Positions 48,001 through 54,000 of a DNA stretch of 55,996 nt are shown here, in pieces. This DNA comes from a virus. Its lineage: Duplodnaviria; Heunggongvirae; Uroviricota; Caudoviricetes. How positions within the stretch are numbered: the first letter of the stretch is position 1; every line of letters starts with the position of its first letter. The position numbers were made by a program. The stretch lies in the IMG/VR virus record IMGVR_UViG_2880361019_000001. One strand, 5' to 3'.

Positions 48001-51000
48001 GGAAGGGTATCTGGATGCGGAATACGCAGAACAACCGGGGGTTTCTCCACCACATGCAGGGTTAACGTCTAATCAACTGGAATTATTGCAGATTTTTTCA
48101 GCCTTCCCAGAGGATGAGCAACGCCAGATAATCAGCGAGTTAAAGCAGAAAAAAGAATCAATGGAAGATCTCATAGCGAGATGGATTGCGGCGCAAAAAT
48201 GCCGCCGCGCCTGAGTTATAAAACCGGAGGAAACATGAATAGAGCCCTTTCACCAATGGTTTCTGAATTTGAAACCATTGAACAAGAAAACAGTTACAAC
48301 GAATGGCTGCGTGCGAAAGTAGCAACGAGCCTTGCAGATCCGCGCCCAGCAATTCCCCATGACGAAGTTGAGCGCAGAATGGCAGAACGCTTTGCTAAGA
48401 TGCGCAAGGAACGGAGCAAGCAGTAAAATGTTACCCGTGTTATGGCTTGAAAGCGCAGATACCGACCTAGATGATATAACTAGTTATATTGCTCGTTTCG
48501 ACATAGATGCGGCTGAACGCTTATGGCAGCGATTAAGGGGTTGTGTGCTGCCGTTATCCGAACATCCGTATTTATACCCACCAAGCGACAGAGTACCTGG
48601 CTTGCGTGAGATTGTAGCCCACCCTAACTATATAATTCTATACCGCGTAACAACATCAAGCGTTGAAGTAGTAAACGTGATCCACGCAAGACGCCAGTTT
48701 CCCTAACTTTCACTACCAATAGAAACATAACAACCGCAACGACTTTATCAAAAGCGTTGTGTTTGTTATGTCCCGCTGTTTAGTTTTTACTTGACTTAAG
48801 TTTAATGTTTATTAGACTAAAAATACCAACCCACCCCGCCCCACAGAACGCAGGGAAATACTTCGAGTTACCCGGCAGTGGTCAGGGGTTAAGTAGCCAG
48901 CCCGAGGCGTATGAACATGACGGCAGGGTTCAACTTTAATAACTATGCAGCAGGTTTTTGTTCCGCTACCCCGGCGTTAAGGGGAAACAGAGGGTTTCTC
49001 AGTGGGCGAAGTCAAACATCAGAATGGAAGGCATCCCGGGATCGGCAAAGAAGCAGCAATGGCGCTTTATATTGACATCAGCGCCATTGCAGGACAGGTA
49101 AGAGTTATCAGAGCGGTAACTAAGCGGTATGCGCCTTTACTTCAGAAAGTCTCTGGTGAGTGCACCGAAGATATTGTCAACGATTTCGTCATCGAACTGC
49201 GAGGACTCATCTTCAGTTACAAGGTGACCACAATTTTTGCAGATGGCTCCCGCGAAACTGTCAGAGCCATGCGGTTTAAAGGATGTGTCGGTGATGCTGC
49301 CAACTTACTGATTTAGTGTATGATGGTGTTTTTGAGGTGCTCCAGTGGCTTCTGTTTCTATCAGCTGTCCCTCCTGTTCAGCTACTGACGGGGTGGTGCG
49401 TAACGGCAAAAGCACCGCCGGACATCAGCGCTATCTCTGCTCTCACTGCCGTAAAACATGGCAACTGCAGTTCACTTACACCGCTTCTCAACCCGGTACG
49501 CACCAGAAAATCATTGATATGGCCATGAATGGCGTTGGATGCCGGGCAACAGCCCGCATTATGGGCGTTGGCCTCAACACGATTTTACGTCACTTAAAAA
49601 ACTCAGGCCGCAGTCGGTAACCTCGCGCATACAGCCGGGCAGTGACGTCATCGTCTGCGCGGAAATGGACGAACAGTGGGGCTATGTCGGGGCTAAATCG
49701 CGCCAGCGCTGGCTGTTTTACGCGTATGACAGGCTCCGGAAGACGGTTGTTGCGCACGTATTCGGTGAACGCACGATGGCGACGCTGGGGCGTCTTATGA
49801 GCCTGCTGTCACCCTTTGACGTGGTGATATGGATGACGGATGGCTGGCCGCTGTATGAATCCCGCCTGAAGGGAAAGCAGCACGTAATCAGCAAGCGATA
49901 TACGCAGCGAATTGAGCGGCATAACCTGAATCTGAGGCAGCACCTGGCACGGCTGGGACGGAAGTCGCTGTCGTTCTCAAAATCGGTGGAGCTGCATGAC
50001 AAAGTCATCGGGCATTATCTGAACATAAAACACTATCAATAAGTTGGAGTCATTACCGGATGTGTCAAAGACTTCGCCGCCACATTCTGGGCAAGAAAAC
50101 TTGATTGTATTCATAACCAATTTCCTCTCGAGTAACAGACCCCTCAGAGGATACCACCTCGCCTGACGTGGTTAAAAGCAGGCAACGCTAACCACAAGGA
50201 GCCGACATGCAGAAACGAGAACCCGTCATCATCGCGCCAGACTATACCGATGATGAACTTTATGAGTGGATGCACCAGAAAATTAATGCAGCGCAGGAGC
50301 TGAAATGGGCCAATGAAGCCAGGGCTAAGCAGGCTGAAAATCTGTCCGCTCTGGAGCAGGATATCACCAATCTGGAAAAAGCAGCGGCATTAAGCATTGC
50401 CAGAATGATTACATACCCGCGTTAATAGCTAACCAACGAAGCTAAGGTTGGTAATTAAGGAGTTCTCCACGGGTGAGGTGGAGTGCGTGCGCCGGACACG
50501 GGTGAGCATCCGGCACTGACAGTTTACTGAAAGGATATTTCCCTGAAAAGTCAGACCATAACGCGAAAGCGCACGGCGAGGTAGCTGGTTCATAGATAGC
50601 CTGTCGTTAAATTTTCGTCGACCGTGCGCTTCCGGTTGTGGCAATCCGCGAAATGGCGCGGCGGTAAGTATGGCGGGGTTATCCCTTCCCCCGTTGAGGA
50701 CACCGGGTTGTCAGGTTGACCATACGCTTAAGTGACAACCCCGCTGCAACGCCCTCTGTTATCAATTTTCTGGTGACGTTTGGCGGTATCAGTTTTACTC
50801 CGTGGCTGCTCTGCCGCCCTTTTTAAAGTGAATTTTGTGATGCGGTGAATGCGGCTCAGCGCACGCGGAACAGTTAAAACCAAAAACAGTGTTATGGGTG
50901 GATTCTCTGTATCCGGCGTTAATTGTTAACTGGTTAACGTCACCTGGAGGCACCAGGCACCGCATCACAAAATTCATTGTTGAGGACGCGGGTGATGCTG

Positions 51001-54000
51001 CCAACTTACTGATTTAGTGTATGATGGTGTTTTTGAGGTGCTCCAGTGGCTTCTGTTTCTATCAGCTGTCCCTCCTGTTCAGCTACTGACGGGGTGGTGC
51101 GTAACGGCAAAAGCACCGCCGGACATCAGCGCTATCTCTGCTCTCACTGCCGTAAAACATGGCAACTGCAGTTCACTTACACCGCTTCTCAACCCGGTAC
51201 GCACCAGAAAATCATTGATATGGCCATGAATGGCGTTGGATGCCGGGCAACAGCCCGCATTATGGGCGTTGGCCTCAACACGATTTTACGTCACTTAAAA
51301 AACTCAGGCCGCAGTCGGTAACCTCGCGCATACAGCCGGGCAGTGACGTCATCGTCTGCGCGGAAATGGACGAACAGTGGGGCTATGTCGGGGCTAAATC
51401 GCGCCAGCGCTGGCTGTTTTACGCGTATGACAGGCTCCGGAAGACGGTTGTTGCGCACGTATTCGGTGAACGCACGATGGCGACGCTGGGGCGTCTTATG
51501 AGCCTGCTGTCACCCTTTGACGTGGTGATATGGATGACGGATGGCTGGCCGCTGTATGAATCCCGCCTGAAGGGAAAGCAGCACGTAATCAGCAAGCGAT
51601 ATACGCAGCGAATTGAGCGGCATAACCTGAATCTGAGGCAGCACCTGGCACGGCTGGGACGGAAGTCGCTGTCGTTCTCAAAATCGGTGGAGCTGCATGA
51701 CAAAGTCATCGGGCATTATCTGAACATAAAACACTATCAATAAGTTGGAGTCATTACCGAGGACGCGATAATGGAAACGTTATTACCAAACGTTAATACG
51801 TCTGAAGGTTGTTTTGATATTGGTGTTCTGCTCAGTAACCGGGAGTTTACTGAAGATGCCATTAATATGAGGAAATATGAGCCTTATCTGCTCAATGATA
51901 ATTCCATACTTTCCCGAATTGCTCTTCTTGAACTTGGTATTTTCGGAGAACGTCAATAACTTCAGCATTTGCACTGATGATGACGGTTTTTCTTATAACG
52001 GGTGAATCACAGAATGTGATTACCGGAATTTATGCCAGTAAAGAATCCTGCCTCCAGGCAAGAGACGAGCAAAAAATTTCTGGTGAATGCCTCCCGGTAA
52101 AAAAAGTATCGCTGTACCTGAATAACGAAACACCGGCTGGATAACCCTCCAGCCATATTAACACCATACCAACGGATTAAAAATGCCAGCAATGGCAGGG
52201 ATTCGTTCACCCTGAAATCTGTAATGAGGTAAAACAAAATGAGTAAAGTCTTTATTTGCGCCGCCATTCCGGACGAACAGGCAATAAAGGAAGAAGGTGC
52301 AGTCGCTGTAGCCACTGCCATTGAAGCCGGTGATGAACGTCGCGCCCGCGCAAAATTTCACTGGCAATTCCTGGAGCATTATCCGGCTGCTCAGGACTGC
52401 GCTTATAAATTTCTTGTTTGCGAGGATAAACCCGGTATACCCCGCCCTGCCCTCTATTCCTGGGATGCTGAATATATGCAGGAAAACCGCTGGGATGAGG
52501 AGTCTGCTTCCTTTGTCCCGGTTGAGACTGAATCAGATCCGATGAACGTCGCTTTTGACAAGCTGGCCCCTGAAGTACAGAACGCTGTCATGGTTAAGTT
52601 CGACACATGTGAAAACATCACCGTTGATATGGTGATTAGCGCGCAGGAATTGTTGCAGGAAGACATGGCAACATTCGACGGACATATCGTTGAAGCGTTG
52701 ATGAAAATGCCAGAAGTTAACGCCATGTATCCGGAGCTTAAGCTGCATGCCATCGGGTGGGTTAAGCATAAATGTAAGCCTGGTGCCAAATGGCCCGAAA
52801 TTCAGGCAGAAATGCGCATCTGGAAAAAACGTCGCGAAGGTGAACGCAAGGAAACCGGAAAATACACGTCTGTTGTTGATCTCGCCCGCGCCAGAGCCAA
52901 TCAACAGTACACTGAAAATTCAACAGGAAAAATCAGCCCGGTCATTGCTGCCATTCATCGCGAATACAAGCAGACATGGAAAACACTGGATGACGAACTG
53001 GCCTACGCTCTCTGGCCTGGTGATGTGGATGCCGGAAACATTGACGGCAGCATCCATCGCTGGGCAAAAAATGAAGTTATCGACAACGGCCGCGAAGACT
53101 GGAAGCGTATCTCGGCATCAATGCGCAAACAGCCTGATGCCCTTCGCTACGACCGCCAGACTATTTTTGGCCTTGTCCGTGAACGTCCGATCGACATTCA
53201 CAAAGACCCTGTGGCACTGAACAAATACATTACTGAATACCTGACTACAAAGGGCGTGTTTGAAGATGAAGGAACAAATCAGAGCGCAACTGACACTCTC
53301 TCGTCGCCAGTACCAGAAACTGATGCAGTGGAAACGGCAATTCCGAACAACGAAAAAACCGAATGCAAAGTGGAAGTCGAACCATCTGTAGAGCGTGAGG
53401 GGCCGTTCTACTTCCTCTTCACCGACAAGGATGGCGAAAAATACGGTCGCGCAAACAAACTTTCTGGTCTGGACAAGGCGCTGGCTGCCGGGGCTACTGA
53501 AATCACGAAAGAAGAATATCTTGCCCGCAAAAACGGAACATACACGGACTTACCGCAAAATGTGGATACCGCTGAAGATTCCGTACAACCGGAGCCGGTA
53601 AAAGTTACCGCTGACGAAGTAAACAAAATTATGCAGGCAGCCAATATCAGCCAGCCTGACGCCGATAAATTGCTTGCTGCATCACGTGGTGAATTTGTTG
53701 AAGGGATTAGCGATCCGAATGATCCGAAATGGGTGAAGGGGATTGAAACCTGCGATTCTGTGAACCAGAACCAGCAAGAATCGGAACAGAACGACCAGAA
53801 AACGGAACAAAACAGCCCAAATGCGCAACAAAACGAGCCAGAAACGAAACAGGAGCCGGAAAAAGCCTGCACCGCCTGCGGTCAGACCGGCGGCGGTAGC
53901 TGCCCTGATTGTGGTGCGGTGATAAGTGACGCAACATACCAGGAAATATTCGATGAAGAGAATCAGCCTGAAGTTCAGGAAAATGATCCGGAGGAAATGG

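Follow-up and report, generated by a model that had tools for sequence, protein, structure and literature searches.

The window analyzed in this study is the whole stretch of DNA in the Caudoviricetes virus record IMGVR_UViG_2880361019_000001 (55,996 nucleotides, nts), which starts in the interior of an IS1 insertion sequence and finishes in the interior of an integrase gene. It carries a perfect inverted repeat between the gene for DicF, a small RNA (sRNA), and a small open reading frame (ORF), and we found that this repeat is the extended closing helix, P1, of an approximately 150-nt pseudoknotted RNA of the + strand (Table 1). By gene content, the locus belongs to a Qin-like lambdoid prophage and is recognized as its dicBF operon, which is of PL type; in it, ydfC, DicF, the repeat and dicB follow one another, with the DUF1482, exonuclease and integrase genes after dicB; the repeat fills the dicF-dicB spacer. 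DicF matches Rfam RF00039 over its full length (75 bits versus a gathering score of 48). The ORF product matches DicB models over their full length in both Pfam (PF05358, E 6.4e-37, 125.5 bits versus a cut-off of 27) and NCBIfam (NF049927, E 1.8e-33, 114.2 bits versus a cut-off of 100). The original prediction, which was made from the sequence without database searches, had correctly found this ORF of 62 amino acids (aa), but recognized neither that it is dicB nor that its leader corresponds to the spacer between dicF and dicB in a well-studied operon. Escherichia coli O103 RM8385 (L001), which is 99.8% identical, served as the uninterrupted homologue for comparison, and K-12 was also compared. 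Of 5,426 complete E. coli genomes, about 4,700 contain the dicF-dicB spacer, with a median of two sites per genome, all of them in prophage DNA.

Table 1. Features of the dicBF locus, in coordinates of the window
Feature	Position	Strand	Basis
Whole structured RNA, divergent STnc100/PasD-family member with extended P1	50827..50978	+	Models R1 and R2, Rfam, fold z
P1 5' strand (left arm)	50827..50847	+	Repeat search, folding, arm variants; published RNase III cut at about 50838/50839
P2 hairpin, GCGGC/GC-CGC with bulged A	50851..50866	+	GC to CG pair flips (both directions); 98.8% of cells paired
Pseudoknot 5' strand, CAGUUAA	50871..50877	+	Partner 50926-50932; permutation test
P4 hairpin, CGUUAA/UUAACG; its loop holds the pseudoknot 3' strand UUAACUG (50926-50932)	50917..50939	+	Alignment, covariation
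P5 hairpin, CCUGG-AGGCA-CCAGG, within the family signature UCACCnGGAGGCACCnGGCACC	50943..50957	+	100% of cells paired
P1 3' strand (right arm)	50958..50978	+	Same bases as for the 5' strand; staggered RNase III cut inferred at about 50968/50969
ydfC, 72 aa	50207..50425	+	ORF list; annotated ydfC in 99.8% identical E. coli records
DicF sRNA with intrinsic terminator (hairpin 50802-50817, T-run 50820-50824)	50768..50819	+	Rfam RF00039; terminator scan
Left target duplication GAGGACGCG, with the original dicB Shine-Dalgarno (SD) sequence GAGGA	50982..50990	+	Direct-repeat search, alignment
IS1, 768 bp, insA/insB on the + strand	50991..51758	+	Terminal inverted repeats, ORFs, copy comparison
Right target duplication GAGGACGCG, keeping an SD sequence 4 nt upstream of the dicB ATG	51759..51767	+	Direct-repeat search
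dicB, cell-division inhibitor, 62 aa, intact ORF	51771..51959	+	Pfam PF05358, NCBIfam NF049927
DUF1482 gene (ydfD position), next in the operon	51977..52144	+	Pfam PF07358, E 7.5e-13

A repeat search placed the two arms at 50829-50847 and 50958-50976 (19 nt, 100% complementary, 110 nt apart), which confirms the perfect 19-bp repeat with a spacer of about 110 bp claimed by the original prediction. As RNA, the helix reaches 21 bp with one G·U pair. When up to three mismatches are allowed, the arm sequence occurs at only two places in the 56-kb window, namely the arms themselves, whereas shuffles expect 0.02. RNA folding had been proposed as a check. For the + strand transcript that runs from DicF to where dicB begins, the predicted energy is -96.7 kcal/mol (z = -5.8), and the arms close a multibranched structure. 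The 21-bp stem is predicted in both the minimum free energy (MFE) and the centroid folds of two alleles, those of the window and K-12. Between these two, each arm carries one substitution, and the substituted positions are not mutual partners; in K-12, a G·U or U·G pair replaces a G-C or C-G pair at each of the two positions, without altering the predicted stem. Moreover, 20 or 21 of the 21 pairs are always retained among 11 distinct arm variants from phage and prophage DNA. The pairing is maintained either by fully compensatory changes (A-U to G-C together with U-A to C-G in L071; U-A to G-C in L064) or by G·U wobbles.

Further copies of the enclosed RNA were collected by scanning viral contigs with the signature CACCnGGAGGCACCnGGCACC, which returned 138 copies (107 distinct) and gave a wider diversity than a scan of genome contigs with the DicF core, by which only six loci were found. 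All follow one plan that reads, from 5' to 3', P1, GGUGAAU, a GC-rich P2, a variable region, P4, UCA, P5 (CCnGG-AGGCA-CCnGG) and the 3' strand of P1, and the invariant columns across the family are GGUG...CACCnGGAGGCAC..GGCACC. Covariation was analyzed on a model-based alignment of 102 distinct sequences. Here, 89% of the cells were paired versus 72% in shuffles, 454 cells were altered on both sides versus 166 in shuffles, and 17 of the 25 pairs change on both sides; the middle pair of P5 alternates between U-A and G-C across the family. The covariation score was 0.407, compared with 0.03-0.146 when partners were slid out of register. In addition, a pseudoknot that was absent from the model used joins the segment behind P2 to the loop of P4. 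It has 6.70 contiguous pairs with each sequence's own partner versus 4.83 ± 0.11 with partners swapped between sequences (about 16 standard deviations), and more than 30 different complementary sequence pairs make it up across the family. Covariation thus supports P1, P2, P4, P5 and the pseudoknot, and the structured RNA leader, which had been one of several possibilities listed in the original prediction, proved correct in the form of a multi-helix pseudoknotted + strand fold with strong covariation.

In a permissive scan, model positions 21-154 (of 206) of Rfam STnc100 (RF02076) matched window positions 50831-50971 (37.4 bits, E 1.3e-6), and the arms were aligned with the closing helix of the model. 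Model R1 scored the window element at 113.4 bits. Model R2 was built from 20 classic members only and had never seen the subtype of the window; it detected the element at 50835-50971 with 63.2 bits (E 2e-17), and gave 58 for the K-12 Qin copy, 68.7 for that of Rac and 70.6 for that of P7. Since a model of classic members alone still detects it, the window element is assigned to the STnc100/PasD family of prophage sRNAs as a divergent member. In a 2026 preprint, the sRNAs PasD1 and PasD2 of enteropathogenic E. coli (EPEC) are counted in the STnc100 family as well. Among the sRNAs found in CsrA-bound chimeras, PasD2 is the most abundant partner. Both PasD (PMC8550237) and EcOnc27/STnc100 (PMC12711010) are expressed, Hfq-stabilised sRNAs. 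The window element has the same architecture as STnc100, PasD1 and PasD2 of EPEC and EcOnc27/sRNA103 of enterohaemorrhagic E. coli (EHEC), including GGUGAAU, the GC-rich P2 and UCACCnGGAGGCACCnGGCACC before the closing helix, and like them it is borne by a prophage. It differs from these relatives in that its P2 and P5 carry compensatory sequence differences, its P1 has 21 bp instead of 6-10 bp, and it lies inside an operon between a terminator and an ORF, whereas the relatives are free-standing with their own promoter and terminator. The pseudoknot is missing from the Rfam structure line shown for STnc100. A search of full-text literature for papers with the U-free signature GGGAGGCACCCGGCACC was negative.

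The window also contains a second STnc100 copy at 36885-37057(-), which reaches a full score of 108 bits. It is situated in the late region directly downstream of three phage tRNA genes (37137-37383, -) and has a DUF1737-like ORF behind it. Among 132 family copies in viral contigs, 15 have a tRNA gene within 500 nt (expected 7.6 ± 2.4), and the tRNA genes near family copies are upstream on the same strand in 38 of 40 cases.

The length of P1 distinguishes two kinds of genomic context. P1 typically has 6-10 bp across the family, and a long P1 (15-21 bp, duplex ΔG -28 to -37 kcal/mol) was found only after a DicF/KilS-type terminator and directly before an ORF, which is dicB at 14 loci, kilR at 11, a YdaE-like gene at one and an Ash-family gene at one. 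The other 75 distinct copies have stems of 6-10 bp with a mean of -15 kcal/mol. They look like free-standing RNA genes, since a sigma-70-like promoter immediately precedes many of them and an intrinsic terminator immediately follows some. BLAST searches found the repeat-bounded segment without dicF or dicB in Rac-type prophages, in the Stx phages 75/02 and POCJ13, and in the P1-like phages P7 and D6. In K-12 MG1655, the Qin copy occupies the dicF-dicB gap (L002 2940-3097 = 1649439-1649596), and the Rac copy (L132 2748-2906(-) = 1418247-1418405, 95.5 bits) takes up exactly the 175 nt that separate kilS (b4833) from kilR; both are unannotated. The Rac leader resembles that of the window in that an Hfq-associated sRNA with a DicF-like terminator (KilS; Bar et al. 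2021, PMC8175672) is followed by the element and by a small gene for an FtsZ/division inhibitor; P1 is long there too, but bulged. It differs in that KilR (73 aa) has no sequence kinship to DicB, and in that RNase III processing is not reported for it; kilR is controlled by Rho/NusG read-through (PMC5793797).

Several further arrangements of family copies were observed. The P7 copy (L009 2484-2633 = P7 72436-72585) is unannotated in the P7 record, and the P7 and D6 copies sit between tRNA-Thr and terB in the C1-controlled ban operon. These P7/D6 matches had first suggested a c4-like antisense RNA of the P1/P7 type upstream of a division inhibitor; this idea was rejected because the P7 copy lies in the ban operon (tRNA-Thr/terB) and not in immI, and Rfam gave no C4 match. 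Tandem arrays of at least three family copies at a spacing of about 250-260 nt occur in some viral contigs and recall phage tRNA arrays (L087 4364-5011, 5338-5475 and 8364-8531; L033 357-1004; L045 1710-2357). There is also a reversed subtype, in which a DicF-like sequence (GTAGTCCTGGCGGTACCAGTTTG...) lies at most about 15 nt behind a short-P1 element, as in L012 3499-3652(-) and likewise in L014, L025, L027, L044, L049 and L093. In one order or the other, the element therefore travels with DicF-like sRNAs.

The site downstream of DicF at which RNase III acts is reportedly traced, in later citations, to work by Faubladier, Cam and Bouché in 1990. A helix of about two turns, such as one of 21 bp, is a textbook substrate of E. 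coli RNase III, and P1 is an uninterrupted double-stranded RNA helix of the approximately 20 bp that characterize such sites (21 bp, one G·U). According to two papers citing the 1990 work (PMC5069750, PMC9438474), DicF has two 3' ends, a 53-nt form ending by intrinsic termination and a 72-nt form made by RNase III from full-length dicBF mRNA. By alignment mapping, the annotated end of the 53-nt form (K-12 1649434) corresponds to window position 50819. The 72-nt end then maps to 50838, which places ten nucleotides of the 19-nt left arm before the cut; with the U-tail allowed for, it maps to 50838-50843, which is still in the arm. The mapped position of P1 thus coincides with the published RNase III end, and the repeat appears to be the substrate of an RNase III cleavage known since 1990. 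In addition, Table S1 of Gordon 2017, from RNA-seq of the wild type and Δrnc, lists a site at 1649470 ('dicF-dicB') with 26 reads in an rnc mutant and 0 in the wild type; counts in that data set are low and small RNAs may have been lost. This site corresponds to window position 50855, inside the element.

The RNase III site of the K-12 dicBF mRNA is at the same locus and has nearly the same sequence, with K-12 differing at two arm positions, both G·U. What sets the two apart is that the accessible literature on K-12 (PMC5069750, PMC9438474 and PMC10448788) gives the cleavage product and not the substrate, and that dicB of the window is also cut off by IS1. We found no description of the 21-bp helix, its contents or a second cut in the accessible literature. 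RNase III processing stalks are otherwise known from the stems of pre-16S and pre-23S rRNA and from the intercistronic sites of phage T7, in which a helix of about two turns undergoes cleavage with a 2-nt stagger. There, too, complementary sequences flank a structured RNA or lie at cistron borders, and the products of one transcript are separated. The analogy is mechanistic alone, without sequence kinship, and differs in that a prophage sRNA-like fold of about 130 nt is enclosed here.

A second long imperfect helix was observed between ydfC and DicF at 50556-50641(+) (-37 kcal/mol, z = -2.7), with core arms at 50564-50576 and 50622-50634. Another RNase III site, upstream of DicF, yields the 5' end of a 190-nt DicF precursor (PMC10448788). 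Since this 5' end is expected in the 3' strand of the 50556-50641 helix, DicF seems to have an RNase III helix on either side.

We consider it likely that the repeat is P1 of an STnc100/PasD-family RNA placed between the DicF terminator and dicB, that this helix is an RNase III substrate, and that IS1 later severed dicB from it. The analysis showed the sequence features, gene identities, family membership, fold, strand and the coincidence with the published RNase III end; a cut in the 3' arm, release of the core RNA and an effect on dicB expression would follow from this explanation. A transcript that reads through the DicF terminator would fold the element, and RNase III would then cut the long P1 in mid-helix, the cut on the 5' side giving the published 72-nt DicF isoform. 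We infer the position of the matching 3'-side cut from the rule that RNase III leaves a 2-nt 3' overhang. Cuts at 50838/50839 and 50968/50969 would leave a core of 130 nt with a normal 9-bp P1, the usual size of free-standing family members, and the outer half of P1 would therefore be a processing stalk by which a copy embedded in an operon could be released. The dicB mRNA would be left with a short 5'-monophosphate leader of about 26 nt. In this way, the element would allow DicF, the core RNA and the toxic dicB mRNA to have separate fates.

Several points weigh against this explanation. The 72-nt end was taken from secondary citations, and, as the annotated 53-nt DicF stops short of the U-tract, its position is known only to within about 5 nt. 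The RNase III data come from strains other than that of the window. The window element, at 37.4 bits, does not reach the STnc100 gathering threshold of 47 bits. Furthermore, reads from the element that appear only in the rnc mutant fit decay after cleavage better than accumulation of a product. This last observation would also fit a helix that serves purely in cis to control dicB (or kilR), either by holding the SD sequence at the foot of a rigid stem or as an entry point for mRNA decay, the core being mere scaffolding that yields no functional separate RNA. The helix indeed stops 3-5 nt before the dicB SD sequence, the predicted fold pairs GAGG with CCUU of the DicF terminator tail, and the long-P1 subtype always lies directly before an ORF, mostly that of a toxic division inhibitor. 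However, this pairing of the SD sequence amounts to 4 bp, the near-invariant loops and the pseudoknot exceed what a decay entry site needs, and free-standing RNA genes that have promoters and terminators of their own are homologues of the core, some of them being expressed and Hfq-stabilised, such as PasD and EcOnc27. A purely cis-acting role is rather unlikely in our judgement, although it is the strongest competitor of a processed family RNA.

The DNA-level readings that the original prediction had put forward, namely an operator half-site pair, a cruciform or the boundaries of an invertible segment, find some ground in the perfection of the repeat over 19 bp in the window and in the occurrence of operators in lambdoid early regions. 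A G·U pair in + strand RNA is an A·C mismatch in the minus strand or in a DNA cruciform, so the arm variants that pair through G·U would have mismatched DNA arms, which disfavours all three. Moreover, the compensatory changes keep pairing and not sequence, and in other family members the helix persists with entirely different arm sequences. The known DicA operators are elsewhere, at dicBp (PMC10448788), no spacer in inverted orientation was seen among about 25 loci, and, as the original prediction had rightly stated, no recombinase gene is adjacent, the only candidate being the prophage integrase 4 kb away. Given the RNA covariation, an element acting as DNA is extremely improbable. A miniature inverted-repeat transposable element (MITE) bounded by terminal inverted repeats would account for a unit of about 150 bp that is delimited by an inverted repeat, is present at 1-10 places per E. 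coli genome and is found in phage settings as different as Qin, Rac, P7/D6 and late operons. It would not account for the covariation and pseudoknot, which show selection on the RNA fold, nor for arms that vary in sequence and length around invariant internal loops, the opposite of what is seen in a MITE. The arm is unique to this locus in the 56-kb window, copies elsewhere always occupy the same syntenic prophage positions, and no target-site duplications were found, which leaves the MITE idea with hardly any probability. Overall, the structured RNA leader and the IS1 account of the original prediction stood, its DNA-level readings fell, and dicB, DicF, the RNase III site and the kinship to STnc100 had been missed.

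The cloverleaf-like, pseudoknotted fold with its near-invariant junctions and loops also raises the idea that the STnc100/PasD RNA could be a protein- or ligand-binding domain, beyond a base-pairing sRNA; one member of the family already ranks first among the sRNA partners in CsrA-bound chimeras. Copies before dicB and kilR might then serve as a sensor or gate that decides division-inhibitor expression through the access of RNase III to the long P1, with the excised core acting in trans. We regard this extension as speculative and improbable.

IS1 separates the small gene from its leader, as originally proposed: the insertion is 768 bp long, has terminal inverted repeats, insA/insB and a 9-bp target duplication, and its empty site in E. 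coli O103 RM8385 and K-12 reads ...TTGAGGACGCGATAATG... / ...CATTGTTGAGGACGCGATAATG.... These uninterrupted sequences make the insertion point certain, 14 nt after the 19-nt right arm rather than the fifteen bp first given. The duplicated 9-mer contains the dicB SD sequence, and the claim that the duplication recreates the ribosome-binding site on both sides of IS1 was borne out. Since the element, DicF and every upstream promoter lie on the other side of IS1 from the intact dicB, this gene is most probably silent in the window. No promoter leading from IS1 outward into dicB was found in a promoter scan; a hand-found TTGGAG-N16-GATAAT promoter was dismissed because transcription from it would start inside dicB. 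The same IS1 junction was not found in 5,426 complete E. coli genomes, and 17 matches that looked full-length each consisted of two pieces and came from another IS1, situated about 285 bp further downstream. The insertion is ordinary prophage decay in an IS1-rich Escherichia or Shigella strain, plausibly favoured by the toxicity of DicB.

The window carries three identical IS1 copies, at 1-393 (cut by the window start), 49290-50057 and 50991-51758. The copy at 49290-50057 has its own target duplication GGATGTGTC (49281-49289 / 50058-50066) and interrupts a minus-strand zinc-binding gene of the ECs_2282 family. The second and third copies form direct repeats around the ydfC-dicF-element unit (50058-50990) in a composite-transposon-like arrangement, and recombination between them could delete the unit. 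We also observed that the 5' region of DicF (50774-50783, UGACGUUUGG) is complementary to codons 6-9 of dicB (51786-51795, CCAAACGUUA), with nine Watson-Crick pairs and one G·U that are paired in the MFE fold. This match may mean nothing, since a rough estimate puts its chance occurrence at roughly one in ten and the site is also under coding constraint.

DicF/DicB and KilR are the classic prophage-encoded cell-division inhibitors of E. coli, and recent work ties them to phage resistance, recovery from oxidative stress and EHEC virulence. That the helix coincides with an RNase III site is known already. What is new is that this helix closes a pseudoknotted RNA of the STnc100/PasD family, that the same module lies before both dicB and kilR, and that a long stem marks the embedded copies as opposed to the free-standing ones. 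The 175-nt spacers before dicB and kilR in K-12, which carry no annotation, are both copies of one conserved RNA. An old RNase III cleavage site thereby gains a structural explanation, a new processed RNA is predicted in K-12, and a tractable system is offered for studying a widespread family of prophage RNAs.

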